Virus record (IMG/VR): IMGVR_UViG_3300013285_000009
Span: 12,984 to 76,983 of that record
Reading direction: 5' to 3' (one strand)
Source: a virus
Lineage: Duplodnaviria; Heunggongvirae; Uroviricota; Caudoviricetes
DNA length: 64,000 nt
The notes under the pieces: model-generated
What the model was told of the DNA's origin: nothing
The model's database searches: none
Seen by the model: only the letters and a program-made list of their open reading frames with translations
Shown here: positions 9,263-57,897 of the stretch, piece by piece
How positions within the stretch are numbered: position 1 is the stretch's first letter
Layout: every line of letters starts with the position of its first letter
Translations under genes and position numbers: made by a program

Positions 9263-9310
9263 TAATAATTGATTGACATTAAATTCAATATTTGATATAA
9301 TCAATTATTA
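9263..9310 (+). promoter_or_regulatory. sigma70-like promoter (TTGACA 9273-9278, N17, TATAAT 9296-9301) embedded in an inverted repeat AATTGAT..ATCAATT
   Basis: family promoter copy; flanking dyad symmetry overlaps both hexamers. Confidence 0.55.
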
Positions 9311-9322
9311 ACAGGAATCAAA

Positions 9323-9610
9323 ATGACCACAGAAGATAATACTCTACCGGAAGAAGCAACTGATGAAGAAATGGAAGAGTTTGAGCATAGTATTGAACTT
9401 GCAAGCGCCTTCTTAGATCAATTAATTCTTCCCCTTTTGGATAAGTTCGAAGAATCAAATAGTGATCAGGATTATATCGAGGGCGCGGCGACACACGGGT
9501 TGTTTATCTCAATAATTCAGCGTATGTCTGAGATGGGATACACCGAAGAAGACCTAGTTAATGAAATCAAAACATATACTAATGCTTCGGCAGGTCAAGT
9601 TCTGCACTAG
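9323..9610 (+). CDS. hypothetical acidic protein
   Basis: 95 aa; Glu/Asp-rich; follows the promoter at 9273. Confidence 0.4.
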   Translation: MTTEDNTLPEEATDEEMEEFEHSIELASAFLDQLILPLLDKFEESNSDQDYIEGAATHGLFISIIQRMSEMGYTEEDLVNEIKTYTNASAGQVLH

Positions 9611-9633
9611 GAGCTATTATCAAAGTATGGTTC

Positions 9634-10068
9634 ATGTATCAAGGTGATGATTATGACTTATCACGAGAAATAATAATCACCAAGTTGTGTGAAGCCGCAT
9701 CTGATATAATCGAATTACCAGATGAACTAATAATACGTATTGCCTGGTTAGGTGAATCAGTATACGGTAATACTGCTGTTGAGTATAGATTCAAAAATAG
9801 AATTAGTATTAATAGTATCCTCTCACTAGCTGAAATCCCAATTGTGTTAATACACGAGTTAATACATGCCAGTCAAATACACACCGGTTTATTAAGCGTT
9901 TCTAGACGAGGCGCATATATTTGGAATAAGGTTCGATATAATGTACCCGAATCTTTGAATATGGAGCAGTACATGCAGCTTCCCTGGGAGGCAGATGTTG
10001 CAGAAAAACAACAAAAAATCTTGGAAGAAACTTTGGCCCACGCCATGAAAAGGCTTGACATTAAATGA
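9634..10068 (+). CDS. hypothetical protein with HExxH zinc-metallopeptidase motif
   Basis: IVLIHELIHASQIH; 144 aa. Confidence 0.4.
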   Translation: MYQGDDYDLSREIIITKLCEAASDIIELPDELIIRIAWLGESVYGNTAVEYRFKNRISINSILSLAEIPIVLIHELIHASQIHTGLLSVSRRGAYIWNKVRYNVPESLNMEQYMQLPWEADVAEKQQKILEETLAHAMKRLDIK

Positions 10069-10083
10069 TTTCGGGAGTATAAT
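10055..10083 (+). promoter_or_regulatory. family promoter (TTGACA-N17-TATAAT)
   Basis: GCTTGACATTAAATGATTTCGGGAGTATAAT; overlaps the stop of the upstream gene. Confidence 0.6.
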
Positions 10084-10115
10084 AGACTCTTAGACAGTAA
10101 AGAAAAGGATTAAAA

Positions 10116-10268
10116 ATGCAGTTCACGTTGATTACGGCTAAAGGTCAAGTCATGCAATTTTTTATCAAAGCAGTAGCAGATTTGTACTGCAATCTTTACG
10201 GTGGTGTTGTTGTCACGAACGATATCTTGAATGAAGTACGGGAAGTATCCGATCAAGTTAGTGCATAA
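10116..10268 (+). CDS. small protein (50 aa), paralog of minus-strand 57321-57467
   Basis: MQFTLITAKGQVMQFFIKAVADLYCNLYGGVVVTN versus MKYTLITSKGKVYTFFIKAVADTYQQAYGGVVITQ; starts about 30 nt after the promoter. Confidence 0.45.
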   Translation: MQFTLITAKGQVMQFFIKAVADLYCNLYGGVVVTNDILNEVREVSDQVSA

Positions 10269-10275
10269 ATACTGC

Positions 10276-10632
10276 ATGAACCCAAACGAAATACAACCTG
10301 ATGCTCATCGAGTAGCTGCCGCGCGAAAGCGCCGCACTGATAGAAATCATGCAATTTATGTTATCACCAATGTGCTAACAGAGGAGCAGTACGTGGGTTT
10401 AGCTGTGATTAGTTCCACAGTTAAAGCTGCGTTAAAACGTCGAATCCAAAAGCACGTGCAACGTGCAAGTGCTGAGGATAAAGACTGGGGATTGTGCAAC
10501 AATATACGTGAATACGGTGTTGAAGCATTCACTTATGGTTTGTTAGAAATAGTGCGAGGGAAAGGTCCTGCGCATCTTCGTGAGTTAGAATATATTAGGC
10601 AGTATCATCCTGCATTGAACACATTTAGATAA
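10276..10632 (+). CDS. GIY-YIG nuclease-domain protein (short)
   Basis: AIYVITNVLTEEQYVGLA..R..H..REYGVEAFTYGLLE..ELEYIRQY matches the GIY-YIG core; no DNA-binding extension. Confidence 0.55.
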   Translation: MNPNEIQPDAHRVAAARKRRTDRNHAIYVITNVLTEEQYVGLAVISSTVKAALKRRIQKHVQRASAEDKDWGLCNNIREYGVEAFTYGLLEIVRGKGPAHLRELEYIRQYHPALNTFR

Positions 10633-10816
10633 TTGGACACATTATGTGGGTAGCCTCAGGCTTTTGTAAAATGATAATTCGTGTTATACTCGTCATTGCA
10701 ATAGTGATACTGTTGCTATTTTGGTTGGAAGTGCCAGAAGATGATTTAGCCGATTCGATAAGTACAGAAACATTTGCACCGCAAGAGTCGGTTATTAAAC
10801 ACACGAAAGAAAATGA

Positions 10817-11107
10817 ATGAATGATATTTTAATTGGAATCGGCAATTGGATTAAAGAGGATTATAAAACACATCCTCTTCGATTCTGTGTCGAGATCCTA
10901 GCTTGGGCAATTAGTATTAGCTGTAGTATTACTATGGCTCTTACAGTTCCCAATCCTCCCCTTTTGTATATGTATCCAGTGTGGATTACTGGTTGCGCCT
11001 TATATGCCTGGGCAGCTTATACAAGAAAAAGCTTCGGTATGATTGCTAACTATGCACTGCTGGTTACGATTGATTGTATCGGTTTGGTCCGTATGTTAAC
11101 ACACTGA
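10817..11107 (+). CDS. small membrane protein
   Basis: 96 aa; two to three hydrophobic helices. Confidence 0.45.
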   Translation: MNDILIGIGNWIKEDYKTHPLRFCVEILAWAISISCSITMALTVPNPPLLYMYPVWITGCALYAWAAYTRKSFGMIANYALLVTIDCIGLVRMLTH

Positions 11108-11115
11108 GATTTAAA

Positions 11116-11583
11116 ATGAATACTTATACACTTGAAGTCCAAGAAGATACAGAAGGCGAATTGTTTCTAGAGTTTCCGGAAGACTTGCTTGCGCAAGTTG
11201 GATGGGAAACTGGCGACACGCTTGTTTGGACAGACCTCAAAGACGGTAGCTGGTCGCTGACTAAAGCGATTGAAAAACCGGAAACTCAATGGGTTCTCGT
11301 AGAAGCAGTATCGACGTTCCGCGAACGTTATATGGTTGAAGTACCAATCGGTACTGATGCATATGGTAAAGATAAAGCAACGTGGGCACTTGATACAGTC
11401 ACTATGAATGAGGCTGAACAGTTCAGTTCAGAACATTTAGGTGAACAAATTGTATCACACCGTGTAGTAACTAAAGAAGAAGCATTGGAGCTGTGTGACA
11501 ACGACAATGATTACACTAATTCTTGGGACGAAGAAACAAAAATGAAAAACTTTTTTACACCTTGGAAAGAACAAAATGCTTAA
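11116..11583 (+). CDS. hypothetical protein
   Basis: in-frame ATG; ORF track's 11074 start is TTG inside the upstream gene. Confidence 0.45.
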   Translation: MNTYTLEVQEDTEGELFLEFPEDLLAQVGWETGDTLVWTDLKDGSWSLTKAIEKPETQWVLVEAVSTFRERYMVEVPIGTDAYGKDKATWALDTVTMNEAEQFSSEHLGEQIVSHRVVTKEEALELCDNDNDYTNSWDEETKMKNFFTPWKEQNA

Positions 11584-11875
11584 TCCCACAGTAGACTGGT
11601 CTGACAAAGAATGGGCAGTAGCCGAGACATGGATTCGAGGGGTGTTGCATACTCATAAAGTAACCGTAACCTTCACTAAGAAAGACGGTGAGGAACGGGT
11701 GATGAATTGCACACTGAATCCTGAGTTTCTTCCTGTAGTTCCCGTTACAGAAGCAGTATCAGAAAAGCCTGAGCGTAAACAATCTACAACCAGTATTGTA
11801 GTGTATGACTTGGATCTCCAAGCATGGCGCAGCTTTACGACTAAGAATGTGACAAAAGTTTCGCTTGACTTTTAA
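11576..11875 (+). CDS. hypothetical protein
   Basis: 99 aa; ATGCTTAA overlap with upstream gene. Confidence 0.4.
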   Translation: MLNPTVDWSDKEWAVAETWIRGVLHTHKVTVTFTKKDGEERVMNCTLNPEFLPVVPVTEAVSEKPERKQSTTSIVVYDLDLQAWRSFTTKNVTKVSLDF

Positions 11876-11893
11876 TCATTTTGGTGTTATAAT
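11865..11893 (+). promoter_or_regulatory. family promoter (TTGACT-N17-TATAAT)
   Basis: CGCTTGACTTTTAATCATTTTGGTGTTATAAT. Confidence 0.55.
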
Positions 11894-11902
11894 ATACTCA
11901 TT

Positions 11903-12058
11903 ATGAAAAAACAAATTCTCTCATTCATTGTACAAGCACCCAAAACACGGGCACACTATGCACTGTTTGCAGAGAACACACCTTTTAAACCAAAGGTAGT
12001 TGCTCCTAAAAACAAGTATCAGCGCAAGCCTAAACATTGCAAAACTGACGATCAATGA
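11903..12058 (+). CDS. small basic protein (51 aa)
   Basis: ATG 10 nt after the -10 region; Lys-rich. Confidence 0.25.
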   Translation: MKKQILSFIVQAPKTRAHYALFAENTPFKPKVVAPKNKYQRKPKHCKTDDQ

Positions 12059-12076
12059 CAACTTGTTTGGGGTAAT

Positions 12077-12205
12077 ATGAAAGAATTTGTAGATTTCATC
12101 GAACCGTTCATATACGGATTTATAATAGGCTTCTTTTGGTATCCGGTATGGAAAATCTTAAAGAAGATTTGCTCTGAGGCTAAAAAAGCGCGTGAAGAAT
12201 GGTGA
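12077..12205 (+). CDS. small membrane protein (42 aa)
   Basis: single hydrophobic helix FIYGFIIGFFWYPVW. Confidence 0.25.
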   Translation: MKEFVDFIEPFIYGFIIGFFWYPVWKILKKICSEAKKAREEW

Positions 12206-12206
12206 C

Positions 12207-12235
12207 TTGACATTAAATGGATTTGGGTATATAAT
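12207..12235 (+). promoter_or_regulatory. family promoter (TTGACA-N17-TATAAT)
   Basis: CTTGACATTAAATGGATTTGGGTATATAAT. Confidence 0.6.
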
Positions 12236-12264
12236 ATAGACTTAAACAACACCGAAACTTGTAT

Positions 12265-13818
12265 ATGAAAAAGCTAACAGCAGTATCGTCACTTTTTCTA
12301 ATTATATTAGCCGCATGCGGTGGGGGCGACTTAGCGATATCAGGTACAACCGATCCACTCGCAAGTCACCCCGCTAATTTTTCAGGAAATATATACTCAC
12401 GTACTCATAGCACATTTTCCAACTCGATTGATGTATATTCAACCCCGTTGGCCGATGCTACTATTAGTTTGGGTACTCAAACTATAAATGCAGATGGCAT
12501 GGGTAATTTTGTCGGAACTGTTCCTACAGTGGTGCTAGCATCTGATACAGTCAACATCACCAAATCCGGATATATTCCGATCAACATTGCAAGATCATTG
12601 ATTGACTCGGCTTCTACTAATATAGGACTATACAGTACATCGAGTGTTAATAGTAGACCGGGATTTATCGGCGGAGTATTTACAATGGACGCCGGTGGCT
12701 ACTTGAATATGATATACAAGCGCAACCTTTTCAACTCTACTTACGATAGAATCAAAACTCAAACAGGAGCTAACTTAGTTGCATCATCTGACCCGGTATG
12801 GGTTGAATCATACGATGTGCAGGCCGGGACGGTAAGTATGAGTAGCACCTCGCAAATACCCATGATGACTAGACAGCAGTACACTACCTTAGTAGGATTG
12901 GCTCATAGTCAGAATATGCAATATATGATGCAGTTGGGGGTTTATCCTGCAGGAAGTCTTCAGATGCCATGGACTGTTCCCGCAAACAATACAGTATTTT
13001 GGACTGCTTGGTTTGCTGCATACAAAGAGATTGTTATTCAATATGCACAGATTGCAACAGACTTAAACATTGAATATATTTCACTTGGAATGAATCATGG
13101 GTTTATGAGTGCATTGCCAGTATCATACTGGAGTGACTTAGTTATCTCAGTCAGAAATACCGGGTATACCGGAAAAATTGTTTATCAAGCAATGATGAAG
13201 CCCGGAGTGTGGTCAGAGACTGACGGTTTCAATACGGCGGCAACTGGTAATCTCACTACTAGGCAGAAAAATTTACAATTTGTTAAACTTTTCGACTATA
13301 TAGTGCTAGACATATATAACATTGTAGGAAACGCTGATTCAAATACTAGTGCACCACGCAGTGATATGCGTAAATCATTTGCGACTATGTTACATAGTTT
13401 CACTGACTATCCGGTTCCACTCATGGTACAAATAGGAACACCGTCTATTCGCGGTGGCTCGGTAATTACTGATTACGTTGAACCGTGTATCGTATGTGTT
13501 TCAATCGCGCCGACTAAGACGATGGATTTGATGGAGCAAGCAGACGTATATCAAACTATAGGTGAAGTAATTAATGCAACACCAACCGGTAATGGTAATG
13601 TTATGGGGTTGATAAGCTGGGGCTATTGGTTTACTGATAATTTCAGAACAAATGTAACCCGCAAATCAACGGGTATAAATTCAGATGGTACACTTGTTGA
13701 TTCTACTGTCGCTATCGGGAATCAAAACTTAATATCAGCATACGACAAGTCAGCAAGTATTCGAGGGAAACCCGCTGAATCAGTATTTGGGTGGTGGATT
13801 AATAAATTCGCTCAGTAA
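12265..13818 (+). CDS. lipoprotein, function unknown
   Basis: signal peptide with lipobox ILAAC; 517 aa; Ser/Thr/Asn-rich. Confidence 0.5.
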   Translation: MKKLTAVSSLFLIILAACGGGDLAISGTTDPLASHPANFSGNIYSRTHSTFSNSIDVYSTPLADATISLGTQTINADGMGNFVGTVPTVVLASDTVNITKSGYIPINIARSLIDSASTNIGLYSTSSVNSRPGFIGGVFTMDAGGYLNMIYKRNLFNSTYDRIKTQTGANLVASSDPVWVESYDVQAGTVSMSSTSQIPMMTRQQYTTLVGLAHSQNMQYMMQLGVYPAGSLQMPWTVPANNTVFWTAWFAAYKEIVIQYAQIATDLNIEYISLGMNHGFMSALPVSYWSDLVISVRNTGYTGKIVYQAMMKPGVWSETDGFNTAATGNLTTRQKNLQFVKLFDYIVLDIYNIVGNADSNTSAPRSDMRKSFATMLHSFTDYPVPLMVQIGTPSIRGGSVITDYVEPCIVCVSIAPTKTMDLMEQADVYQTIGEVINATPTGNGNVMGLISWGYWFTDNFRTNVTRKSTGINSDGTLVDSTVAIGNQNLISAYDKSASIRGKPAESVFGWWINKFAQ

Positions 13819-13839
13819 TTCAATTTATAGCAAGGATTT

Positions 13840-13858
13840 GCCCCATATGGGGCTTTCC
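13840..13858 (+). terminator. hairpin GCCCCATATGGGGC followed by TTTCC; weak terminator and part of the repeated hairpin-TTCCTACGGTTGA unit
   Basis: seen directly; a decayed promoter remnant follows (TTGAG-TATATAAT with collapsed spacer). Confidence 0.4.
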
Positions 13859-13888
13859 TACGGTTGAGTATATAATGATAAATACATT

Positions 13889-14299
13889 ATGTCACTGATA
13901 GAAACTCCGGAACAAAAGATAATACGAGAAAACTCCACAGTCAGGTTCATGACTAATGTGGTGTTCGATGGACTTACTGATGTAACTGTCACTGATTCTA
14001 TCTTATCTAAACAGATTGATTTAGTGTTCGATGTGCCTACATATGAAAAATCATTTGAAATCGAAGATATATCAATCAATCCTAACTCAAGTGTCGTGGT
14101 TACTTACATAGGTAATCCCACAGCAGGTAATGATATAGATGAAGTAGAATTTGATAAATTCAATATAGTTGCAACACCGTATACAGTTACTTATCCGTAT
14201 GCAGTTGCAGTTCCTCACAACGGTGGTATGACTTTATATGTTGCTGCCGTTCCTGGCCCTGTATACGGGTCTTATAAATTTTCTTACACAATAACATAA
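13889..14299 (+). CDS. hypothetical protein adjacent to tail fibre
   Basis: 136 aa ORF immediately upstream of the collagen-like fibre gene. Confidence 0.4.
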
Positions 14300-14300
14300 T

Positions 14301-16253
14301 ATGGCAATCATCCGCGATCCAATCGACCCGACTAATATTCTTAACGTCAACGCAGACGGCTCCGTCAACGTGGAGATTAGTAATTGGCCACCATCTGTAC
14401 CCGGTCCCCAGGGCTCTACCGGTGAGCAAGGTTTGACCGGTGAGCAAGGTTTGACCGGTCCCCGGGGTCTTACTGGCCCTATAGGTTTGCAAGGCGCGAC
14501 AGGCCAAACTGGCATTCAAGGTCTAGTGGGTCCGGCCGGCACAGGTGCTACTGGTCTAACAGGAGCTGCTTCTACTGTAGTTGGGCCCACTGGCCCAACT
14601 GGCCCCATCGGTTTAACGGGGGCGACTGGCCTAACTGGTGCTGCATCTACTATTGCTGGACCAACAGGTGCAACAGGTGCTGCAGGATCGTTCGGCGGCG
14701 CAGCATTTGACTATATGTATAGTAGTTCAGTTACCGGAATAGCTGACCCGGGCAGCTATAGCTTTAACAATATGAATTTAACGTTAGCGACTATGATGTA
14801 TATCAACAACATAGACGAGAACGGAGTGTTAACAACTAACTTCTTAGAGACAATTGATAGCTCAACTTCGGCGATTAAGGGCCACTTTAGTGTATCAGAT
14901 GAAGCCAACACAGTTGCATTTACGCTATTTGCCATCATCGGCTCACACACATTGAGTAACAATGTTTATGCAATCCCGATTGCATGGTTGGCGGGAGTAA
15001 CATCAATTCCTGATGCAAATCATAGTATTATAACCTTTGCTAGAACGGGAGATAAAGGAGATACCGGAGTCACTGGTGCTAAAGGGACAACCGGTAATAC
15101 AGGTGCGACTGGCGCACAAGGCAACACCGGATTAACCGGATTAACCGGTGCTGCATCTACTATCTCCGGGCCCCCGGGAGCAACGGGATCTATTGGCGCG
15201 GCCGGCCCGATCGGTAACATTGGGCCGGCCGGCCCAATGGGGCCTAGCAGCGGAGGTACTTCAGTTACCACCTTCTATGACAGCACACAGTCAAACAATA
15301 TTAAATATTCTCATAGCAGCAACAATCAACTGATCTCCGGGGCAGCTATCACTACTGACTTGGCCGGCACATACCGTACTGAATTCAATGCAGAATATTA
15401 TTGCACTCCTTCTATAGTATCTGCACAGTGTGCTACTGATTTGTCTTTGTTGGTTTCGACGCTCAACTCACTACCATCAACCGGTGTCCACGCAGCAGCA
15501 TTCGGCGCGGGCGAAACACTGGCTCCCGGTGTATACACGGTAGCAGGTGCAAGCACACAGGGCGGCAACTTAGCGTTTGACGGCCAAAACAATCCAAACT
15601 CAGTTTGGGTCATTCGAGTTAATGCAGCATTTGCTACGGCAGCAGGCGCAACGATGTCGTTGATTAACGGAGCACGAGCTGCAAACATCTTCTGGATAAT
15701 TAACGGCGCACCGACGTTCGGTGCTCAAGGTGTATTTAAAGGTACATTGATTGCCATTGCAGCAGCAATAACAACCGGTGACACTATTGACTTAGAAGGA
15801 AGATTTTTTAGCACAACTGGTGCAATTGCTACTACTAATGCTACATTAAATGTACCATTTGGTCCATCTGTAATTAATTTAGGTTCATTACAAAACTTTG
15901 TACTGTTTACTGCACTCGGTGCAGTGGGCAACACTGGTTCTATTGCTTGCCTAGGCGATATTAGTACAGGCGGTGGCGCAATTGCCGGCTACACCGGTTC
16001 TGTCGGAAGTATCTATGTACCAACTGATACCGGTACTCGTGCAACGTTTGGCATATATGTCAACGGAAGTCTAATTGCAAACTCAACACGCCTAGGACAG
16101 AGTATCCCTAACACACCGGGATTTGGCAAAGCAGCCGTACTATCCGGAATTGTACCGACTACTGCGGGACAGACAATTGAAGTTCGAATCAAGGTTGATG
16201 TTGGTGTATTTAACATCACGTCAATGAATCTTTACACCGTCAAGATTGCATAA
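14301..16253 (+). CDS. tail fibre or receptor-binding protein with collagen-like G-x-T triplet repeats
   Basis: [37 protein letters not shown].. and a second Gly-X-Y block [28 protein letters not shown]; Ala/Gly/Thr-rich C-terminal domain. Confidence 0.65.
14421..14456 (+). repeat. 18-bp perfect tandem duplication GGTGAGCAAGGTTTGACC x2 within the collagen-like region
   Basis: seen directly; encodes GEQGLT x2. Confidence 0.8.
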
Positions 16254-16261
16254 AAAGTAAC

Positions 16262-16287
16262 GGAATGCCCCTTAACCGGGGCATTCC
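16262..16287 (+). terminator. hairpin GGAATGCCCC-TTAACC-GGGGCATTCC, 3' of the tail fibre gene, followed by TTCCTACGGTTGACATTAAAT
   Basis: 10-bp perfect stem; same hairpin-promoter unit as at 13840 and 57874. Confidence 0.5.
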
Positions 16288-16292
16288 TACGG

Positions 16293-16321
16293 TTGACATT
16301 AAATCATTTTGGGTGTATAAT
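16293..16321 (+). promoter_or_regulatory. family promoter (TTGACA-N17-TATAAT)
   Basis: GGTTGACATTAAATCATTTTGGGTGTATAAT followed by conserved leader AGACTCATAGACAGCAACAAACAGG. Confidence 0.65.
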
Positions 16322-16355
16322 AGACTCATAGACAGCAACAAACAGGCGATGAAAA

Positions 16356-16586
16356 ATGGAAAAAGTTCAGATCACGGTGTTCGGTAAGCAAGCGATGGTT
16401 GATCAAGATATGGTCAAAAAGATGCTTAAAAAGAGCGAATTGGTAGCCGGAGCTATGCGTTTACAAGCAGTCATGAACGCGGTTCCCCGCGAAGCTGAAC
16501 CCATTTTGCAAAAACAACTCCAGGAAATAGCAAGCAAGATCATCCGCTTGAATCGTACAATCCGCAAAAACGTTCAGTTCATCTAA
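16356..16586 (+). CDS. hypothetical small protein
   Basis: 76 aa following promoter plus leader. Confidence 0.4.
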   Translation: MEKVQITVFGKQAMVDQDMVKKMLKKSELVAGAMRLQAVMNAVPREAEPILQKQLQEIASKIIRLNRTIRKNVQFI

Positions 16587-16595
16587 AGAAAACGG

Positions 16596-16624: not shown

Positions 16625-16654
16625 AGTATCTTAAACAGTCAAAAGGAATACATC

Positions 16655-50489: not shown

Positions 50490-50491
50490 CC

Positions 50492-50722: not shown

Positions 50723-51141
50723 ACAAGTTCCGATGGATAAAACATTGTTACAACTTTGTCTCTCTTCACTGCATAATCATGCGTGTACCATGTACCGCCC
50801 CTTGGTTGCCAAGTCATTTGTAGCGGTACTACAAGCAGGGAATCAGTACTATCCACGATAGCCCTATCACGTTGCAAGTAACCGGCTGGCTCACGTACCT
50901 CGTCGCCACCAAAGAAACCTTGTTGCTCAGTTGACTTAGGAGGATGACATACAATAATGTAACCTATTTCCTTAGCAATAGCAGCAGCCTCAACATCAAC
51001 ACCCCTGCAGTCACCGTGATGCAATTCCGGAGTGATGTTGTCTAACTGACACATGATCATTATACCGTTCAGAACGGCCTGAACTTCATTAGCTTGGTAA
51101 GGAGTCATGCCTTCACGTGTACCAGTGACACCGATCTTCAT
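50719..51141 (-). CDS. DUF2493/SLOG-family protein (YspA-like nucleotide-binding Rossmannoid)
   Basis: KIGVTGTRE..HHGDCRGVDVEAAAIAKEIGY..QRDRAIV..GGTWYT matches the GTGxR / GGxxGxD / RN / GGT pattern. Confidence 0.5.
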   Translation of the reverse strand: MKIGVTGTREGMTPYQANEVQAVLNGIMIMCQLDNITPELHHGDCRGVDVEAAAIAKEIGYIIVCHPPKSTEQQGFFGGDEVREPAGYLQRDRAIVDSTDSLLVVPLQMTWQPRGGTWYTHDYAVKRDKVVTMFYPSELV

Positions 51142-51719
51142 GCAAATTCTACCAAGGTAACTGAGCCACCCTTTTTACTAACATCTTCGGCAAAGAACTC
51201 AATCATTTGAATGATGGTATCCTTATGTCCACCGGCGAGTCCCATACCAATGTAGGGAAAACCGATTCGTTTGTCACCGTGTACAAACAATAACTTTTCC
51301 AAAATTAATTGAAATGCAGTGTACTCAAATACATCAGTGCCCTGACTCATATTGTATTGAGTGTATGCGTTGATGATGACAAATTTGCCGGTGAATTCGG
51401 TCCAATTGCCTAATTTCATATGGTCGCCGCGTTCGGTAAGTCTATCGATTTCTTGACACATGGGATAGCGTTCGGCAATTTCCCGTGCAATACCGCCTCC
51501 CATGGCACAGAAGCAATTACATCCCTGTACCACGATGTCGAACTCGCCAGCTTCTGCTAAGTCGAGCAAATTACCTTTGGTGTGTTTTAGCATAGAAGTA
51601 TTCATAGGAAAGTCAACGGGGTTATCTGTGTTTGTATAATGCGGCAGAACAACGCCGGCCTCCGCTGCCATTCGTAGTTTATCTGCTACTGTTACAAGTG
51701 TGTCGTTAGCCATTTGCAT
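51138..51719 (-). CDS. macro-domain protein (ADP-ribose binding or processing)
   Basis: FDIVVQGCNCFCAMGGGIAREI and IGFPYIGMGLAGG resemble macro motifs (a)IVNAAN..GGGVxxAI and (a)FPAIStGvyG. Confidence 0.6.
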   Translation of the reverse strand: MQMANDTLVTVADKLRMAAEAGVVLPHYTNTDNPVDFPMNTSMLKHTKGNLLDLAEAGEFDIVVQGCNCFCAMGGGIAREIAERYPMCQEIDRLTERGDHMKLGNWTEFTGKFVIINAYTQYNMSQGTDVFEYTAFQLILEKLLFVHGDKRIGFPYIGMGLAGGHKDTIIQMIEFFAEDVSKKGGSVTLVEFA

Positions 51720-51945
51720 AATCTTTCTTTAAAAGGTTTACTGTATGTTGATGACATTGGTTGATATAGAATTGTGCGACTCTCATCATAGCCTCTGCGT
51801 GTTCGTAGCTAGATGGAAGAACTACACACTCACCTCGGTGCAGTTCGTCTAGTTTAAGTCGGCATTCGTGGTCGGTGTATGGAATCATTTTTCTTTCTCC
51901 ATTTCTGTCACGATATCTTCGGCTTCTTTCAAGCCGCGTTCCCAT
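51706..51945 (-). CDS. hypothetical protein
   Basis: 79 aa. Confidence 0.35.
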   Translation of the reverse strand: MGTRLERSRRYRDRNGERKMIPYTDHECRLKLDELHRGECVVLPSSYEHAEAMMRVAQFYINQCHQHTVNLLKKDYANG

Positions 51946-52067
51946 CGTGCCATCATAGCACGGAACGCCGCAATATTAGCACGATTGTGAAACAAGTCAC
52001 CACTCCATACTGCGGCATCAATCTCGTCCATTGGACCGTCTTCTAAACGTTTGTAATGTTCGTTCAT
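51885..52067 (-). CDS. hypothetical protein (distant MNE-type small protein?)
   Basis: 60 aa; begins MNEHYKRLEDG. Confidence 0.3.
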   Translation of the reverse strand: MNEHYKRLEDGPMDEIDAAVWSGDLFHNRANIAAFRAMMARWERGLKEAEDIVTEMEKEK

Positions 52068-52189
52068 TCTTCAACTCCAAAACAACTTTTTAACAAAACC
52101 GAAAACGATCATAAAAATTGTAAAGTAAGCAGTCGCGCCTATCATCAATAGATATACAACCGCCCACCAACCTGCTCGATCCACTTCAC

Positions 52190-52411
52190 TCATTCTTCAA
52201 CTCCGAAATGTAATATACCATCAGTGGCGTTATCAAAGTGTTGTTCAATCCGCTGTGCATAATGATCACCTTCTTTGGTGCCATCCATAACAGCCTTAAC
52301 ACATTCAAATTTGATCAACTCGGCGAACTTTTCTTTGTCAAACATCTCTATGTCAGTATAGGTGTTGATGTAATAACACTGGTCGGCAAGTTGTTTAATT
52401 CGTTCATTCAT
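52190..52411 (-). CDS. MNERIK small-protein family member c
   Basis: MNERIKQLADQ..FAELIKFECV..HFGVEE. Confidence 0.5.
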   Translation of the reverse strand: MNERIKQLADQCYYINTYTDIEMFDKEKFAELIKFECVKAVMDGTKEGDHYAQRIEQHFDNATDGILHFGVEE

Positions 52412-52448
52412 TTTACGCTCCTAGAAAGTGTTTGTTTCTGTTGTATAC

Positions 52449-52477
52449 ATTATAGCATAGAAACCATTTTGTGTCAA
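52449..52477 (-). promoter_or_regulatory. family promoter, minus orientation, divergent
   Basis: reverse complement GCATTGACACAAAATGGTTTCTATGCTATAAT. Confidence 0.5.
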
Positions 52478-52523
52478 TGCTACAAATGTTGTATAATTTC
52501 GTAGTGATTAGATAAATAAATGT

Positions 52524-53210
52524 ATGAACTACCCTATTACTCAACTTCACCGGGATAACTTTAAGCCCACTTATCTGTATATCAAGCAGCATACAGAAAC
52601 GGGCAAACTCTATTTTGGAAAAACTACCAAAAAGAATGTTGAGAGGTATACTGGTTCTGGAATACATTGGGGCCGTCATATCAGTGCTCACGGGAAAGAC
52701 AAAGTAGTTACACTTTGGTATTGTTTATACACAGAGATCGAAATTTTAGTTGAAACTGCTTTGGCAATGTCGGCAATAATGGATATAACTGAATCAACTG
52801 ATTGGTTAAACTTTAAGCCAGAATCTGGATTAGATGGCGGCTCGTTTGTTGGGTTCAATGGATGGGCTGGTAAGAAACATTCTCCAGAGCACATCGAAAA
52901 ATTAAGAAAACTCGGAAGAGAACGCCCTGTTACTGAAAATATGCGGAATAGTTTTTTAAAGCGTGATTTTAATGGCGCTAAAAATGGCATGGCATTACAC
53001 ATAGATATTTTCGATGACACTGGATTGCTAAGATTTAAATGCCATGGAAATTTCGAGAAATTATGCATTGAAAATAATCTACCTATGGGACCGCTTAAGA
53101 TTTCGTATGCCAGAGGAGGAAAACCAATTTTTACATCAAAATCCACAGGTAGATTGAAAGATTTATCCATGTTAAAATATAAAAATTGGTTTGCTAAAAT
53201 AGCAGTTTAA
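52524..53210 (+). CDS. GIY-YIG-type homing endonuclease (Seg-like), plus-strand insertion
   Basis: YLYIKQHTETGKLYFGKTTKKNVERYTGSG variant GIY-YIG core; only plus-strand gene in this part of the minus block. Confidence 0.55.
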   Translation: MNYPITQLHRDNFKPTYLYIKQHTETGKLYFGKTTKKNVERYTGSGIHWGRHISAHGKDKVVTLWYCLYTEIEILVETALAMSAIMDITESTDWLNFKPESGLDGGSFVGFNGWAGKKHSPEHIEKLRKLGRERPVTENMRNSFLKRDFNGAKNGMALHIDIFDDTGLLRFKCHGNFEKLCIENNLPMGPLKISYARGGKPIFTSKSTGRLKDLSMLKYKNWFAKIAV

Positions 53211-54226
53211 TTACCAAGGAAGTGGGTCAGGATCTCATAATGATCTTCAAAGCATTCTTCACTACGAACTTCTGCGATAGGAACCCACCGTGCTTTTTCG
53301 GCATCGTCACTGCCTTTTACTTTTGGCAGTTCACCATCGGGCAACTGAATATAAAATGCATGTGTGATGATACGACCACGCGGGCTCCGATCCACAGCAT
53401 CAAATACCTTGCTTCGTACAATAGATCCACGCAACACAGGACCGGGTACTTTGATCAATGTTTCTTCACGCAATTCACGGATAGCAGCATCTTCCACATT
53501 CTTGTCAGTCTGTGCATTTACATAGCCACCGGGCAATGCCCACAATCCCTTACCTGGTTCAGCGCGGCGCTTAATCATCAGCACATGCCCACTTTGGATA
53601 ACAACTGCGTCAGCAGTAACAAAGATTGGAGGATACTTCAAACTAGCGTACTGCTTTGCATTTTCAATCAAGAATTCACGTTCACGGATAATTTGTTCGT
53701 ACTCAGGGGTCTCTTTAAATTGATCCAAGAAGTCAAACGTAGTCTTTGGAACAACGTTCTTAATGAAGTTCATATTTACATCACGTTTGAAATACAAGTT
53801 ACGAATGTCAGTCGCATCCAGTGGCTCCAGCAGTTCAACTTCTTCAAAGCCCCATTGCGGAAACGTATCAAGATAGAAACTTGACGGGTCTTTCTTGTGA
53901 CCAATAATGCCAATCTTTTCGCCAGGGACAGTATGCTTGGCAACTAGTGCTTGCACACGAACAGCCCAGGCTTGGTCATTGTAGATAGTATCGGGATTTG
54001 CTTCCACGTGAATAGACAAGTCAAGTCCGCCAGTGGCATACTTGATCATTTTGTAACGTTCATCAAACGTGAACGGGTTCTTGTAAGTGCGAGGCTGATT
54101 AGCTGACCCGCAAATAAAGATTAGTTTTTTGCAATTTGCAGTGGCACGATGCGCCAAGAGTAAGTGAGCAGTGTGGAACGGTTGAAAACGTCCGATTAGG
54201 ACAAGTGTATCGTATTTTTTAGACAT
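53207..54226 (-). CDS. natV: bifunctional NMN adenylyltransferase / Nudix ADP-ribose pyrophosphatase (NatV/NadM-Nudix)
   Basis: N-terminus LIGRFQPFHTAHLLL (HxGH NMNAT); C-terminal Nudix box GGYVNAQTDKNVEDAAIRELREETL. Confidence 0.85.
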   Translation of the reverse strand: MSKKYDTLVLIGRFQPFHTAHLLLAHRATANCKKLIFICGSANQPRTYKNPFTFDERYKMIKYATGGLDLSIHVEANPDTIYNDQAWAVRVQALVAKHTVPGEKIGIIGHKKDPSSFYLDTFPQWGFEEVELLEPLDATDIRNLYFKRDVNMNFIKNVVPKTTFDFLDQFKETPEYEQIIREREFLIENAKQYASLKYPPIFVTADAVVIQSGHVLMIKRRAEPGKGLWALPGGYVNAQTDKNVEDAAIRELREETLIKVPGPVLRGSIVRSKVFDAVDRSPRGRIITHAFYIQLPDGELPKVKGSDDAEKARWVPIAEVRSEECFEDHYEILTHFLGN

Positions 54227-54227
54227 A

Positions 54228-54554
54228 TTAATAACCTCGAATCAATTTGAATGCAGTGAGAGTAGAAGCAATGTCCAATCCATGTTCGTCACAATGGCAG
54301 ATCATTTTCTGTGCTTTTTTCAAATACTCACTGTGGGCGTGACTTGTCCAGTCGTCTTTTTTGTTTTTGACTTCATAATGCCAACCGCAACCATCTGTGT
54401 GGTTGTGAGTGCAGAGCATACCGTGCAACTCTTTGGCAAGTTGATGATCTGGTGATTCGAGTTTAGCCGCAATCAGTTGGGCTTGCAAGTCTTTGAGACC
54501 TTGCTCATGTTGTTTGATTTGTTCTTCGATAGCGAAGAGAGTTAATTTTGACAT
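54228..54554 (-). CDS. small Cys/His-rich protein
   Basis: 108 aa; CTHNHTDGCGWH..HAHSE..CHCDEHG. Confidence 0.4.
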   Translation of the reverse strand: MSKLTLFAIEEQIKQHEQGLKDLQAQLIAAKLESPDHQLAKELHGMLCTHNHTDGCGWHYEVKNKKDDWTSHAHSEYLKKAQKMICHCDEHGLDIASTLTAFKLIRGY

Positions 54555-54613
54555 TGAAAAATCCTTTCAATTAATGTCAGTAGAAAGTCTATCTCTCTAC
54601 AGTTTATAATTAC

Positions 54614-54642
54614 ATTATAGCATGACCTGTATTAAAAGTCAA
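54614..54642 (-). promoter_or_regulatory. family promoter, minus orientation, divergent
   Basis: reverse complement GCTTGACTTTTAATACAGGTCATGCTATAAT. Confidence 0.5.
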
Positions 54643-54657
54643 GCTATAATTTTTGCA

Positions 54658-55710
54658 TTAAAATGCATCGTAGTTGAAGGTATGTTGCTTGATTCTAGTC
54701 AAAGTCAAGCGTGTACCATTGTCTTCAAACACGAACTTACCGTCCACAGCGCTGATAGAAACCAGTGCCTCAGTGCTGAAAGTCTGACTCTTCCATTCAC
54801 CGTCGTCATTTTCGGGTTCTGGATCAAATCCGACTGAAATGCCCTTTTGTTGCAGAGGATTGCCGTCAAACACACTAGGGTTCACGCCTTCTACATCAAC
54901 ACCATTGAACACAACCTTCACATCGTACTTTGTGCCGCCGTCAAATTCTGGCTTAGCATTAAGCATACGCAATGATTCCTGCGGGCTTTCATTGTAGCGA
55001 TTCATTTCTTCAACCAATGCCTTAAGCATATCAAAGTTGAATTCGGCGAACAAGCTAGCGATAGAGCAAATCTTTTCAATGTGATGCTTTGCATCCAAAT
55101 TGTCATTGCAGTATTCAGTAATGAATTCGGCACCAAGTCCCTTGAAGTCAATCATGTAGTAGATACGACCTGGACGATTGCGCATATGTTGGTCAACACG
55201 CCACTTGTCATTACAAGTCAATGCATACAGTTTCTTAGAACCAAATACACCGTCAAGCAAAGTCAAGATAGATTCTTGTTCGTCACGGTCATACACCTTC
55301 TCGAATTCGTCAAACAGAACCATGCACGGCTGTTCAATGTCTTGCAACAGTTTGTTGAAGTTGTCGCCATGCCATGGGCTATTGATAACGATAGTAGGTA
55401 CACCTTGCTCAGCCAACTCAATAGCGATATTCTTAGCAAGCAATGTTTTACCAGAACCCTTTTCACCGTTCAGCATGATACCGGTTGAAACGGTACGCTC
55501 TGTGAAAGTGCGGATAATACGGTCAGTGTTCTTGAAAGTATCACCGTACAGCTTTGATGGCTTCACAAAACTTTCAATTTGTTCCAGATATAGATTACCA
55601 AACGGATCAGCCTTGATGATGTAATTACCGGCGGGTAATTTTTCATGCAAGTCGAGGGAGTCCTTTGTGGACACTTTGAAGCTAGAACCAGATTTCAGAA
55701 AGTAAGTCAT
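54658..55710 (-). CDS. AAA+ ATPase of unknown function
   Basis: Walker A LNGEKGSGKTLLAKN; Walker B CMVLFDEFEK; about 130-aa N-terminal domain and about 100-aa C-terminal domain. Confidence 0.55.
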   Translation of the reverse strand: MTYFLKSGSSFKVSTKDSLDLHEKLPAGNYIIKADPFGNLYLEQIESFVKPSKLYGDTFKNTDRIIRTFTERTVSTGIMLNGEKGSGKTLLAKNIAIELAEQGVPTIVINSPWHGDNFNKLLQDIEQPCMVLFDEFEKVYDRDEQESILTLLDGVFGSKKLYALTCNDKWRVDQHMRNRPGRIYYMIDFKGLGAEFITEYCNDNLDAKHHIEKICSIASLFAEFNFDMLKALVEEMNRYNESPQESLRMLNAKPEFDGGTKYDVKVVFNGVDVEGVNPSVFDGNPLQQKGISVGFDPEPENDDGEWKSQTFSTEALVSISAVDGKFVFEDNGTRLTLTRIKQHTFNYDAF

Positions 55711-55783
55711 ATTTTATCGCGTTGTTTTAATGTATGATTATTATATCAGGGATGCGACCCAATGTCAACATCCCTGATACTTT

Positions 55784-57220
55784 TTATTTACGAGCGTTTG
55801 CCCGAACTTCTTCAAAGGTGATTTCTTTTACAAGCACTCCATCACGAAATACTTCATTCAGCACATTAGTCCAACCACCGGTGCCTTTGTCAGTCCATCC
55901 CATTGGCTGAGTTACTGCTGACTGATATTCACCACCTGATTCCCAAAGAGTAACACGACCACGCTTGCTACGCTTACCACTATCAGTGATAGGGTCTTTG
56001 TAAACATCGCGCCACACCAAACTTTTGAAAGGACCGTGATCACGTTCAGTAGAATATTCACGAACACCAATCGCGCTACACTTCATTGCCCACTGCATTG
56101 TGTCACGATCCACACGTTGCAGCAATGCACCACCTTGACCAAACGCCACGTTGTCTGCACTGAATCCTGCAATTTCCATACAGAACAAGATGCTGTGGAT
56201 GCTTGCTTGATCAATACCATCACCTTGGATGATACGCACTGCTGGGTTTAGAACACGATAGCCTTTAGCGTTGACAGTTGAACCAAAGTGTTTTTCAAGA
56301 ATGTACAAACACTTTACAACCACGTCAGAGGGGTTGCCCGAGTCCGGGCGGACGACCAAAGTTGCGCCACTGTCAAGGACGTCTTGTTTAAGGACTGTGC
56401 CCCAGAGTTCACAGGCTTTGTAAATGTCGTAGCTGTCCGAGACGCAAGCGAAGATGCCCCCTGCTTTTGCGTTTTGCTTGACCATGTTGCGGTACGAGTC
56501 AACTTCATTTTCTTTACCCCAAGATGTTACAGTAGAGTGTTCCATAGCTGGAATACTGAACCCAGCAATGCCAGCGTTATAATACTCCCGAGCGTAAAGA
56601 ATGCCCGAAACAGTATCCGACCCCATAAAGTTGACGAGATGGGCAGCGCCGCCAATTGCAGCAGATTCGAGACTAGATACACCACGAGCACCAAAGTCAT
56701 GAAGTTTGAAATCGATAGTAGATGGGTCACCAGTTTTTTCCAATGCAGCAAGAATGATTTTTTTAGATTCGTAGCTGTTAGTTGCTACTGTAGTAGGATA
56801 CCAAATTGCGCGGAGCAATGCAGTTTCTAGGAACGAGGTGAGCCAGAAGCAGTTGGGATCCGTGTTCTCAATAGTTGCCAATACATTTTTAATAGGGACA
56901 AGTGTGCCTTCAGGAACAGCTTTGATAACGACAGGAAGTTTACCTCCGTGTACCCGTAGAATGTATTCCCATCCTTCTCTGTTGAAAGGTTCTCCGTGAG
57001 CAGTGATGATCGCATCAGCAAGATCAATGTCGGCTTGAACGATTGGCTCAATTAGATACTCCTTAATAAATGCTTGTAATCCGAAGAAAACAGTATCATT
57101 CCATTTACCACCGCGTGATTCAATGTATGAATAAACGTATTCAGTACCAGGGGGATACTGATTAAATTGACTGAATTTGTAACTATCCGAATTGAGAATG
57201 ATGTTTTTAAAACTTGACAT
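55784..57220 (-). CDS. nadV: nicotinamide phosphoribosyltransferase (NadV/NAMPT)
   Basis: collinear NAMPT hallmarks: NSDSYKFSQ, IKAVPEGTLVP, TDPNCFWLTSFLET, KLHDFGARGVSS, GGAAHLVNFMGSDT, RPDSGNP, IQGDGID, SGKRSKRGR. Confidence 0.95.
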   Translation of the reverse strand: MSSFKNIILNSDSYKFSQFNQYPPGTEYVYSYIESRGGKWNDTVFFGLQAFIKEYLIEPIVQADIDLADAIITAHGEPFNREGWEYILRVHGGKLPVVIKAVPEGTLVPIKNVLATIENTDPNCFWLTSFLETALLRAIWYPTTVATNSYESKKIILAALEKTGDPSTIDFKLHDFGARGVSSLESAAIGGAAHLVNFMGSDTVSGILYAREYYNAGIAGFSIPAMEHSTVTSWGKENEVDSYRNMVKQNAKAGGIFACVSDSYDIYKACELWGTVLKQDVLDSGATLVVRPDSGNPSDVVVKCLYILEKHFGSTVNAKGYRVLNPAVRIIQGDGIDQASIHSILFCMEIAGFSADNVAFGQGGALLQRVDRDTMQWAMKCSAIGVREYSTERDHGPFKSLVWRDVYKDPITDSGKRSKRGRVTLWESGGEYQSAVTQPMGWTDKGTGGWTNVLNEVFRDGVLVKEITFEEVRANARK

Positions 57221-57279
57221 ATAAAAATCCTTTATATAAAATGTCTATAAGAGTCTATCTCTTACTTTCTATTTAGTCT

Positions 57280-57307
57280 ATTATAACAGATTATTTATAT
57301 TTTTCAA
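57280..57307 (-). promoter_or_regulatory. sigma70-like promoter for nadV (TTGAAA-N16-TATAAT), relative of the family
   Basis: reverse complement TTGAAAAATATAAATAATCTGTTATAATAGACT; leader ATAGACTCTTATAGAC resembles the family leader. Confidence 0.45.
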
Positions 57308-57320
57308 CTAAATTGGGTAA

Positions 57321-57467
57321 TTAAGCGGTGACTGTCTCGACCGTTTGGGTTTCGAGAATTTGTTGTGTAATAACAACACCACCGTATGCTTGCTGATAGG
57401 TGTCAGCGACTGCCTTGATGAAGAATGTGTAAACTTTACCCTTTGATGTAATCAATGTGTACTTCAT
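57321..57467 (-). CDS. small protein (48 aa), paralog of plus-strand 10116-10268
   Basis: MKYTLITSKGKVYTFFIKAVADTYQQAYGGVVITQQILETQTVETVTA; about 30 nt after the promoter. Confidence 0.45.
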   Translation of the reverse strand: MKYTLITSKGKVYTFFIKAVADTYQQAYGGVVITQQILETQTVETVTA

Positions 57468-57496
57468 TCTGAATCCCTTTGTCTGTTTAAGTATCT

Positions 57497-57525
57497 ATTA
57501 TAACACCAAACCCATTTAATGTCAA
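57497..57525 (-). promoter_or_regulatory. family promoter, minus orientation
   Basis: reverse complement GGTTGACATTAAATGGGTTTGGTGTTATAAT plus leader AGATACTTAAACAGACAAAGGGA. Confidence 0.6.
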
Positions 57526-57806
57526 CCGACTTGTTTGTCGATGATACGAACCAGATCCTCTACGAATACATCGGATACTTTGGTATCAACTTTGACTTCT
57601 AGATTACGGATACGGAAGAATTCGATATCGTACAGATCAGTTCCTTCATTGTAAATGATGTTGACTTGACCCTTCCAACGAGTCATTCCACTAGATTTGA
57701 ACTGCAATCCCTTGCCTGTGTTGACAAGGTCCTTAGCACCCCAGGCAAACATCGCTCTTGGGTCAAGATTCTTGATTTGGGAGAGAATTACTTGTGCTGT
57801 GTTCAT
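57522..57806 (-). CDS. hypothetical protein
   Basis: 94 aa. Confidence 0.45.
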   Translation of the reverse strand: MNTAQVILSQIKNLDPRAMFAWGAKDLVNTGKGLQFKSSGMTRWKGQVNIIYNEGTDLYDIEFFRIRNLEVKVDTKVSDVFVEDLVRIIDKQVG

Positions 57807-57838
57807 TTGTAGTCCTATTTGTTGCTGTCTATGAGTCT

Positions 57839-57867
57839 ATTATACACCCAAAATGATTTAATGTCAA
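57839..57867 (-). promoter_or_regulatory. family promoter, minus orientation
   Basis: reverse complement GGTTGACATTAAATCATTTTGGGTGTATAAT plus leader AGACTCATAGACAGCAACAAATAGGA. Confidence 0.65.
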
Positions 57868-57873
57868 CCGTAG

Positions 57874-57897
57874 GAAAGCCCCTTTCGGGGCTTTCTT
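57874..57897 (-). terminator. terminator hairpin GAAAGCCCC-TTTC-GGGGCTTTC, immediately 5' (minus sense) of the promoter; third copy of the hairpin-TTCCTACGGTTGACATTAAAT unit
   Basis: seen directly; follows the stop of 57914-58171. Confidence 0.6.

Follow-up and report, generated by a model that had tools for sequence, protein, structure and literature searches.

Selection for strength and recombination probably maintain the likeness of sigma70-type promoter and translation-start cassettes repeated in an uncultivated large phage

The 64,000-nucleotide stretch analyzed here (hereafter the window; IMG/VR record IMGVR_UViG_3300013285_000009, positions 12,984 to 76,983) corresponds to positions 27,490–91,489 of the 131,875-bp ENA metagenome contig ERZ27247438 k141_226922 and carries a family of repeated sigma70-type promoters, many of which continue into a conserved leader that ends at the Shine-Dalgarno (SD) sequence of the following gene. 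Genes run rightward as far as ~36.55 kb and leftward beyond that point, and the two blocks converge on a bidirectional terminator (GAAAAGCCCCTAAATTAGGGGCTTTTTT, 36566–36596) that lies exactly between them. A second strong terminator is present at 5611–5636, after the gene at 4696..5592. Recognizable products of the window include rIIA, rIIB, NAMPT, an NMNAT-Nudix enzyme, an RNA ligase and a GIY-YIG homing endonuclease, alongside many small open reading frames (ORFs). The promoters are clustered at 9.2–36 kb on the plus strand and at 48.3–57.9 kb on the minus strand, where they precede genes that mostly encode 48–140 aa. The conserved unit, referred to below as the cassette, extends from -38 to +20 relative to the predicted start of transcription, ends at the SD sequence and contains the promoter in every case.

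A scan of the whole window for TTGACA-N16-18-TATAAT, allowing at most one mismatch in total, returned 38 sites, of which 34 lie directly 5' of genes. These gene-preceding promoters comprise 23 on the plus strand (9273..35814) and 11 on the minus strand (42040..57867); the 23 plus-strand and nine minus-strand copies listed in a preliminary description of this DNA are all recovered, and the minus-strand promoters at 42040 and 57307 are added to them. Every one of the 34 is oriented in the direction of the local genes, the spacer is 17 bp in all except the promoter at 57307 (16 bp), and both hexamers match perfectly (12/12) in 23. A 29-nt family core is found 17 times in the window with three or fewer mismatches, as compared with an expectation of 0.00 from 100 shuffles. 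The proposal that sigma70-type promoters stand before many unrelated, mostly small genes is borne out.

How alike are these copies? Likeness was scored against a 55-nt consensus with 53 specified positions, and 12 copies differ from it by no more than six mismatches. About nine further copies are recognizable cassettes with 8–16 mismatches, some of which result from leader deletions of 1–3 nt, and about 12 have in common only the hexamers, with or without the TTAAAT block or part of the spacer. The description of more than 30 near-identical copies thus holds for the first 12 and is overstated for the remainder. In the window alignment, positions between -37 and about +20 carry much information and those beyond are at background level, so the conservation reported past the -10 hexamer as far as the SD sequence is real. 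Because conservation is confined to ~58 bp, the repeat unit must be a promoter-leader module and not a duplicated gene segment. Moreover, the downstream products are mutually unrelated with the exception of one paralogous pair, which agrees with the earlier view that whole-gene duplication is not the cause, and 16 of 20 promoter-led proteins have no Pfam match. The paralogous pair (10116..10268 on the plus strand and 57321..57467 on the minus strand; 48–50 aa, 64% amino-acid identity) is placed on opposite strands with one gene in each promoter-rich block. Upstream of the conserved unit, A is the commonest base at -44..-39, yet the information there is only 0.1–0.4 bit. On the downstream side, the distance between the -10 hexamer and the ATG is 29–34 nt in 24 of 33 window copies.

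Full family cassettes on the plus strand lie at 17332..17392 (three mismatches to the consensus), 20475..20536 (with TTGATA as the -35 hexamer), 26300..26362, 34060..34122, 34502..34562 (one mismatch, the copy nearest the consensus) and 35079..35140; those on the minus strand lie at 49770..49831 (two mismatches), 50074..50132 and 50429..50489. Other cassettes of the family depart from these in the leader. The copy at 10055..10115 (plus), whose -35 hexamer falls within the 3' end of the upstream ORF, carries the leader variant CAGTAAAGAAAAGGA, the copy at 16833..16894 (plus) carries CAGTTAATTAAAGGA, and the copy at 24720..24780 (plus) carries CTGTTAAACAAAGGC. Leaders are shortened at 16596..16654 (plus) and 57468..57525 (minus), both of which have a GGTGT-class spacer, and at 48354..48412 (minus). 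Family promoters with divergent leaders stand before a 519-aa lipoprotein-like gene (12207..12264, plus) and, with a GGAG SD sequence, before a cell-wall hydrolase gene (24129..24186, plus); another family promoter precedes rIIA (27224..27281, plus).

The remaining promoters have looser ties to the family. Perfect 12/12 hexamers are found at 9273..9322 (plus), with a non-family spacer and a short leader before the gene at 9323..9610; at 22653..22711 (plus), ahead of the RNA ligase gene, where the spacer is GGTGT and the leader CAA-rich; at 35814..35898 (plus), with a 56-nt leader of its own that contains a small hairpin and is conserved in orthologues; and at 52412..52477 (minus), with a CAA-rich leader and a GGAG SD sequence. 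The form TTGACT-N17-TATAAT occurs at 11865..11902 (plus), at 30446..30506 (plus) after rIIB, at 41971..42040 (minus), where neither spacer nor leader is of the family type, and at 54555..54642 (minus), where the leader is long and non-family. TTGACA-N17-TATACT is present at 26725..26783 (plus), with TTAAAT and a leader of its own, and at 31530..31583 (plus), with a non-family spacer, while a non-family TTGAAA-N16-TATAAT stands before NAMPT (57221..57307, minus).

Three copies are associated with a GC hairpin. At 16262..16355 (plus), a hairpin (16262–16287) is followed by TACGG and a full family cassette with its -35 hexamer at 16293, and at 57807..57894 (minus) a hairpin (~57875–57894) is followed by CCTACGG and a full family cassette with its -35 hexamer at 57867. 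The two 90-nt units of hairpin, promoter and leader are nearly identical, inverted with respect to each other and 41 kb apart; recombination between them would invert all of the DNA in between. The third copy, at 13840..13876 (plus), is degraded, such that the hairpin GCCCCATATGGGGC of 13840–13853, TTTCCTACGG and TTGA are joined straight to GTATATAAT and the spacer is deleted. All three have a GGGG...CCCC-type hairpin and a common TTCCTACGG linker.

The family extends well beyond this genome. The exact 32-nt core was found in six IMG/VR contigs, and a looser core (TTGACATTAAATnnnTTTGGnnnTATAAT) in more than 117, some of which are 230–364 kb in length. The exact core gave no match in GTDB species-representative genomes, and thus no host or prophage lead; a blastn search of the 70-nt consensus cassette against cultured phages gave only matches with E≥2, and the motif string had no match in the literature. 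From 147 fetched loci we assembled a clade set of 582 unique -35/N17/-10 sites, for which the consensus is aa.GG TTGACA TTAAAT GG TTTT GGGTA TATAAT A.A..C(T/A)TA.ACAG. The segment from -38 to +8, which covers spacer and discriminator as well as the eight bases transcribed first, is conserved clade-wide, whereas the segment from +9 to the SD sequence falls into a few lineage-specific leader dialects.

A fundamental question is where transcription starts on these promoters. The distance from the -10 hexamer to the first ATG has two peaks among the 582 clade sites, one at 29–34 nt (300/582) and one at exactly 6 nt. The TATAAT-N6-ATG arrangement is present at 66 sites, of which 62 open ORFs of at least 40 aa (median 112 aa). 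One such site, in the contig just right of the window (L148, 8935–8972), stands before an independently called 343-aa 5'-3' exonuclease gene, other examples are L077 3735 and L010 3782, and the window itself contributes the family promoter at 25853..25887 (plus), whose ATG is at 25888. Leaderless messages need an AUG at their 5' end. For this reason, +1 should be the seventh base after TATAAT and the standard leader should be 23–28 nt in length, which gives indirect support to the start site 7 nt after TATAAT that had been proposed for the window copies. The promoter at 11865–11905 has its ATG after only 9 nt and would be near-leaderless; its gene encodes 51 aa, and the spacing is kept in orthologues at ten or more loci.

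The leaders of 23–28 nt are 51% A, and fold prediction returned a minimum free energy (MFE) of 0 for 23 of 28. Start regions (-25..+35) of promoter-led genes have a predicted folding energy of -3.1 kcal/mol, as compared with -6.1 for internal genes (p=8e-5), a control restricted to genes of the same block and strand with an ATG and a good SD sequence, and -9.6 for random 60-mers. The conserved SD sequence is AGGA at about +17..+20, and the ATG follows 29–34 nt past the -10 hexamer in most copies. The leader motif CAGCAACAA occurs 13 times in the window, 11 times directly after a family promoter and twice within coding sequence. Its conservation had been taken to imply selection on the RNA, as a riboregulator or as a processing site like those of T4 RegB, an endoribonuclease whose targets are GGAG in the SD regions of early genes. 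The likeness to RegB targets is that a short motif is common to the translation-start regions of many early messages; however, the conserved SD sequence here is AGGA and GGAG occurs in only five of 28 leaders, so the analogy is not supported. The riboregulator proposal fares no better, since the leaders are predicted to be largely unfolded, Rfam returned no match at the gathering threshold, and the leader complement is absent from intergenic DNA of the window, its one reverse complement, within a coding region at 31698, being taken as chance. A tRNA scan of the window found none. An NAD-capping promoter consensus (HRRASWW) does not fit either, as -1 is C or T, and by inspection CsrA and Hfq motifs are not conserved across dialects. 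The leaders fit an open, unstructured translation-start region, not a structured riboregulator or a RegB-type site. Nor is conservation of this kind as unusual as it had appeared, for it has precedent in the PeSL elements of T4-type phages (PMC2839356, PMC4122927) and in initially transcribed sequences (PMC5961368, PMC12464699).

The dialects give a further view of what keeps the copies alike. Most leaders of the window and of the contigs nearest to it are of the type CAGCAACAAAnAGGA, while CAGTTAATTAAAGGA, seen in the window at 16833, is dominant outside this lineage; further dialects are CAGTAAAGAACAGGA, CAGTCAACAA... and GATTGATTAAAGGAG. Positions +9..+17 are mostly uniform within a genome and differ between lineages. 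The cassettes at 34502, 35079, 48412 and 50489 lead the genes that begin at 34563 and 35141 on the plus strand and at 48353 and 50428 on the minus strand, and in other lineages the orthologues of these four genes carry CAGTTAA(C/T)TA(A/C)AGGA instead of CAGCAACAAAnAGGA. Orthologous cassettes are 80% identical and the downstream coding sequence 72%; the cassettes stand barely above coding sequence because the orthologues carry their own genome's dialect. The idea that orthologous cassettes are far better conserved than their genes was rejected on these figures, with the orthologue differences falling in the dialect region. The conservation that had been read as selection on the RNA therefore divides in two, in that only -38..+8 and the SD sequence are conserved across the clade and +9..+17 follow the genome of residence. 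Because dialects follow the genome and not the gene, we read them as the product of concerted evolution rather than of a conserved RNA signal, and the uniformity of copies within a genome points to recombination at the DNA level. Two observations taken up below, the identical neighboring promoters of L090 and the linkage of spacer variants to discriminator variants, point in the same direction.

An alternative hypothesis is that the leader is uniform because it is the target of an RNA regulator acting in trans, such as a RegB-like endoribonuclease, a RegA-like translational repressor, or a small RNA or RNA-binding protein of phage or host, which would shut off or process early messages coordinately and with which the dialects would have co-evolved. 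A segment that is uniform in each genome and variable among lineages is what such a co-evolving factor would produce, and two features are conserved clade-wide, namely CAG at +6..+8 and where the SD sequence lies. By eye only, the four consecutive A-R-N triplets of the window-lineage leader (AAC AGC AAC AAA) also resemble motifs bound by the distal face of Hfq; the CAGTTAATTAAAGGA dialect, however, does not have this pattern. A single genome can hold more than one dialect, as the window copies at 10055, 16833 and 24720 differ from the main type, and the scarcity of GGAG and the lack of structure, Rfam match or intergenic complement reported above count against any regulator of this kind. In addition, two adjacent units in the related contig L090 have promoters that are 100% identical, non-transcribed spacer positions included, although their counterparts in the window (the units from 16596 and 34060) differ from each other; copying at the DNA level fits this observation better. 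We regard a regulator of the leader RNA as improbable.

Could the cassettes instead be selfish or neutral repeats spread by duplication, with no selection beyond the hexamers and the SD sequence? The identical neighbors in L090 and the degraded copy at 13840–13876 are of the sort such repeats would leave behind, as are variants that are linked across the cassette: GGGTn spacers occur with AGAnTC discriminators and GGTGn spacers with AGATAC (odds ratio 9.6, p=1e-4). However, the same -38..+8 consensus is found in contigs whose shared genes are only 65–80% identical in nucleotide sequence, every copy is co-oriented with its gene at a tightly constrained distance from -10 to ATG, and inspection of the flanks revealed neither the terminal repeats nor the target duplications that usually accompany mobile elements. 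Purely neutral spread is very improbable on this evidence.

A similar question applies to the spacer. In the preliminary description the promoter was given an extended -10 element, and this assignment is correct only for a minority class. The dominant class ends in ...TTTTGGGTG|TATAAT (GGGTG or GGGTA), with G and T at -15 and -14 where the canonical element has T-15 G-14; canonical TGn is found in the class ...TTTGGTGn|TATAAT, which accounts for 19 of 34 sites in the window and 174 of 582 in the clade (30%). The GGTGn class thus matches extended -10 promoters in T-15 G-14, but such promoters can do without a -35 element and the copies here keep theirs (at most one mismatch over both hexamers). 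Across the 582 sites, drawn from many lineages, each spacer position from -29 to -14 carries 0.45–1.0 bit. This clade-wide conservation, in which TTAAAT next to the -35 hexamer is followed by TTTTGGG, exceeds the known needs of sigma70.

One explanation for this excess is that the spacer (TTAAAT...TTTTGGGTG) and the segment -6..+8 form a DNA site for a phage or host protein that switches the early promoters together; it might repress or activate early genes, belong to the nucleoid proteins or modify the polymerase. The information in the spacer is above what a generic sigma70 promoter requires, the dominant class lacks canonical TGn so that an extended -10 contact cannot explain its GGG(T), and in a minority of copies the spacer is exchanged for an inverted repeat around the -35 hexamer. 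In contrast, inspection of the consensus shows no clear dyad symmetry in the conserved block, functional-looking 12/12 promoters with unrelated spacers reside in the same genome (9273, 35814, 52477 and 55768), and no candidate regulator was identified in the window. T-rich spacers and the bases at -18/-17 are, moreover, known to influence sigma70 promoters. A dedicated DNA-binding protein therefore seems about as doubtful as a regulator of the leader RNA. A related proposal is that the promoters are read by a phage sigma factor or polymerase with the same hexamer preference, for which the extra conserved positions could serve as specificity determinants. We consider this hardly credible, because the hexamers and the 17-bp spacing are the exact bacterial housekeeping consensus and neither a sigma nor a polymerase gene came to light in the window plus 20 kb of flanks of the 131,875-bp contig.

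The promoters with an inverted repeat form a subclass of their own, in which the family spacer is replaced by an 8–10 bp inverted repeat that has one arm just 5' of the -35 hexamer, the other arm in the spacer and the hexamer itself in the loop. In the window they are represented at 32442–32482 (plus) and 55740–55780 (minus). The former belongs to the 12/12 promoter at 32454..32515 (plus), which has a 10-bp repeat (CAGAATTCGG/CCGAATTCTG) and a family leader, and the latter to the 12/12 promoter at 55711..55768 (minus), which has a 9-bp repeat (TCAGGGATG/CATCCCTGA). Promoters of this form are also present in L127, L042, L090, L134 and others, and the arm sequences vary between copies (CAGAATTCGG, TCAGGGATG, AAACCTCATA, CACCCAATAC) in a manner that looks compensatory. 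Stems of at least 8 bp around the -35 hexamer occur at 26 of the 582 sites (4.5%), as compared with 1.4% of mismatched controls, and at 2 of 33 window sites. A hairpin bracketing the -35 hexamer was for this reason rejected as a general feature of the family and retained as a real minority subclass.

Comparison with related contigs, IMG/VR 3300047281_000061 (L143 and L068) and L090, places many rearrangements at the cassettes. L143/L068 and L090 are collinear with the window from 54.2 to 25.5 kb at 70–85% nucleotide identity. The rIIA–rIIB block (27224–30503), flanked by the promoters at 27224 and 30446, is absent from the collinear place in L068/L090, and the segments 31428–34502 and 48412–53229 are likewise absent from collinear relatives, the cassette at 48354..48412 lying at the junction of a 4.8-kb indel relative to L143. 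The units 16593–16875 and 34057–34287, which contain the cassettes at 16596 and 34060, are transposed in L068/L090 to just before the promoter at 35814. Junctions relative to L068, L090 and L143 fall at 16593, 16875, 27223, 30504, 34057, 34502 and 48412, and overall 20 of 70 junction ends lie in cassette zones, which make up 3.9% of the window. The GIY-YIG homing endonuclease gene (21516–22409, plus) adjoins the RNA ligase gene (22712–23458) and is a potential further source of local plasticity.

What kind of phage carries these cassettes? The flanks encode a DnaE-type polymerase fragment, a GroES-like protein, DnaJ, ClpA/B, ClpP, ClpS, HSP20, a helicase and a 5'-3' exonuclease. The chaperone and protease set is spread over 67–2073 of the window and the flanks L150 and L148, where the ClpA/B-like ATPase is 756 aa as called and PhoH and a SprT-like protein are also encoded. 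Megablast found no cultured phage that matches 8 kb taken from the window, the best cultured relatives are 30–51% identical at the amino-acid level, and examination of 84 kb (window plus flanks) brought no T4 core gene to light. The source is probably an uncultivated large phage that is not T4-like. In the promoter-rich region, 14301–16253 (plus) encodes a probable fiber or adhesin of 650 aa, which contains collagen triple-helix repeats together with an ice-binding-like domain; the hairpin at 16262 follows this gene. Some genes without a family promoter have a different motif, (G/C)ATAAATA, just 5' of them in the sense orientation, at 2797, 5662, 6914, 10265, 13878 and 21471 on the plus strand and at 38215, 40764, 46014, 59190, 60614 and 61966 on the minus strand, in some cases only 4–5 nt before the ATG and without an SD sequence. 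Its total of 15 is not above the expectation from base composition and its placement alone is non-random; it may mark another class of promoters, middle or late in timing, that is similar to the T4 late TATAAATA.

The closest described counterparts are the PeSLs, composites of a stem-loop, an AT-rich region, a sigma70 promoter, an SD sequence and an ATG (PMC4122927) that are known from the phages RB49/phi1, T4/PST and KVP40/nt-1 (Arbiol et al. 2010, PMC2839356; Comeau et al. 2014, PMC4122927). PeSLs are enriched beside ORFans in hyperplastic regions and have been implicated in shuffling and in mini-circle formation (PMC2839356, PMC4122927). The cassettes resemble them in the repeated TTGACA-N17-TATAAT promoter with a putatively A-rich upstream region, SD sequence and start codon; in their residence in regions rich in small ORFans (PMC2839356), as the lack of Pfam matches indicates here; in their position at indel and exchange junctions; and in their degraded copies, with 13840–13876 recalling the 'half PeSLs' of nt-1/PST. 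The unit at 16262..16355 is a complete PeSL-like composite of stem-loop, promoter and SD sequence. Unlike PeSLs, about 30 of 33 copies have no upstream stem-loop, and terminator-like sites are not enriched over shuffles (18 vs 14.8, 15 vs 13.8 and 11 vs 13.2), so that most cassettes are not terminator-promoter composites. The conservation through spacer, discriminator, first eight transcribed bases and lineage leader is not emphasized in the PeSL papers, and the genome, whose flanks carry Clp/DnaJ/GroES genes as well as a DnaE-type polymerase fragment, is not recognizably T4-like. Since the stem-loop is missing from most copies and the phage is probably not of the T4 type, the family does not qualify as a strict PeSL, and our analysis places it as a variant that would work in the same way. 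The T5 early promoters offer a second comparison. Consensus promoters, T5 N25 among them, are limited by promoter escape, and output can vary by orders of magnitude with the first ~10 bp transcribed (PMC12464699, PMC5961368). The T5 promoters (e.g. PN25) share near-consensus hexamers, rate-limiting escape and sequence constraint on +1..+10/+20 with the family, for which the latter properties would follow by analogy; they have no sequence similarity to it, nor have they been described as a family in which more than 30 copies have an SD-bearing leader in common.

Taken together, we hypothesize, and consider probable, that the cassettes are early promoter and translation-start units for the host sigma70 polymerase, whose likeness reflects both selection for strength and recombination. 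Each unit of ~58 bp consists of a perfect promoter of the host sigma70 type, GG-TTGACA-N17-TATAAT, whose spacer is specific to the family; a conserved segment, A(G)AnnC(A/T)TA(R)ACAG, made up of the discriminator and the eight bases transcribed first; an A/C-rich, structureless leader of 23–28 nt; and an AGGA SD sequence 6–9 nt 5' of the ATG. The host RNA polymerase holoenzyme would read the cassettes right after infection without phage factors and would start 7 nt (sometimes 8–9) past the -10 hexamer. The spacer and the initially transcribed bases may tune a consensus promoter limited by escape to maximal productive output, and the unstructured leader may offer open and uniform ribosome access to many unrelated small accessory genes. 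Recombination or gene conversion among copies would be the second cause, beside selection, of near-identity within a genome, and the same recombination would move, insert and delete units of promoter and gene, as for T4-type PeSLs. The anatomy, the statistics, the spread through the clade, the predicted lack of leader structure, the dialects and the placing of junctions at cassettes are direct observations; host sigma70 use, early timing, the effects on escape and translation, and homogenization by recombination are inferred from them.

Several observations weigh against this model. A trans-acting factor that co-evolves with the leader would equally give genome-uniform dialects, and the known sigma70 contacts leave the spacer conservation unexplained, which an extra protein contact could account for. 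A cassette stands at about 22% of gene starts, so an indel of whole genes would often end at one anyway and the enrichment of junctions is weaker when set against gene boundaries; moreover, no hybrid cassette marks the rIIA–rIIB indel in L090. Only two intact copies and one degraded copy have the GC stem-loop upstream, which is part of the PeSL definition, and the genome, with a DnaE-type polymerase fragment and a Clp/DnaJ set in its flanks, is probably not T4-like. Finally, the start site, the timing and the polymerase are all inferred.

Taken together, an extra protein contact in the spacer and a trans-acting factor co-evolving with the leader are unlikely, though they are the most serious competitors of the model of selection and recombination. 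A more specific form of these ideas, in which the dialects and the conserved spacer are recognition codes of a phage-encoded trans-acting factor (a translational or nuclease regulator that binds RNA, or a protein that binds DNA or associates with the polymerase) that co-evolves with the cassettes and switches the whole early regulon coordinately, is less likely again; if true, it would mean that an uncultivated clade of large phages has a new global system of early-gene control, and that the dialects are not a by-product of recombination. Unless a trans-acting factor is found, no new category of regulation is called for. The model of host-read units shaped by selection and recombination would extend the PeSL idea, in which promoter repeats serve both as early drivers and as recombination handles, to a large uncultivated clade with different replication machinery. 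The family also provides about 600 natural variants of one optimized sigma70 promoter, which could inform promoter models and synthetic-biology parts, and its combination of a standard class with a 25-nt leader and a leaderless class gives a comparative handle on the start of transcription. The principle of cassettes in this double role may be general among big phages.

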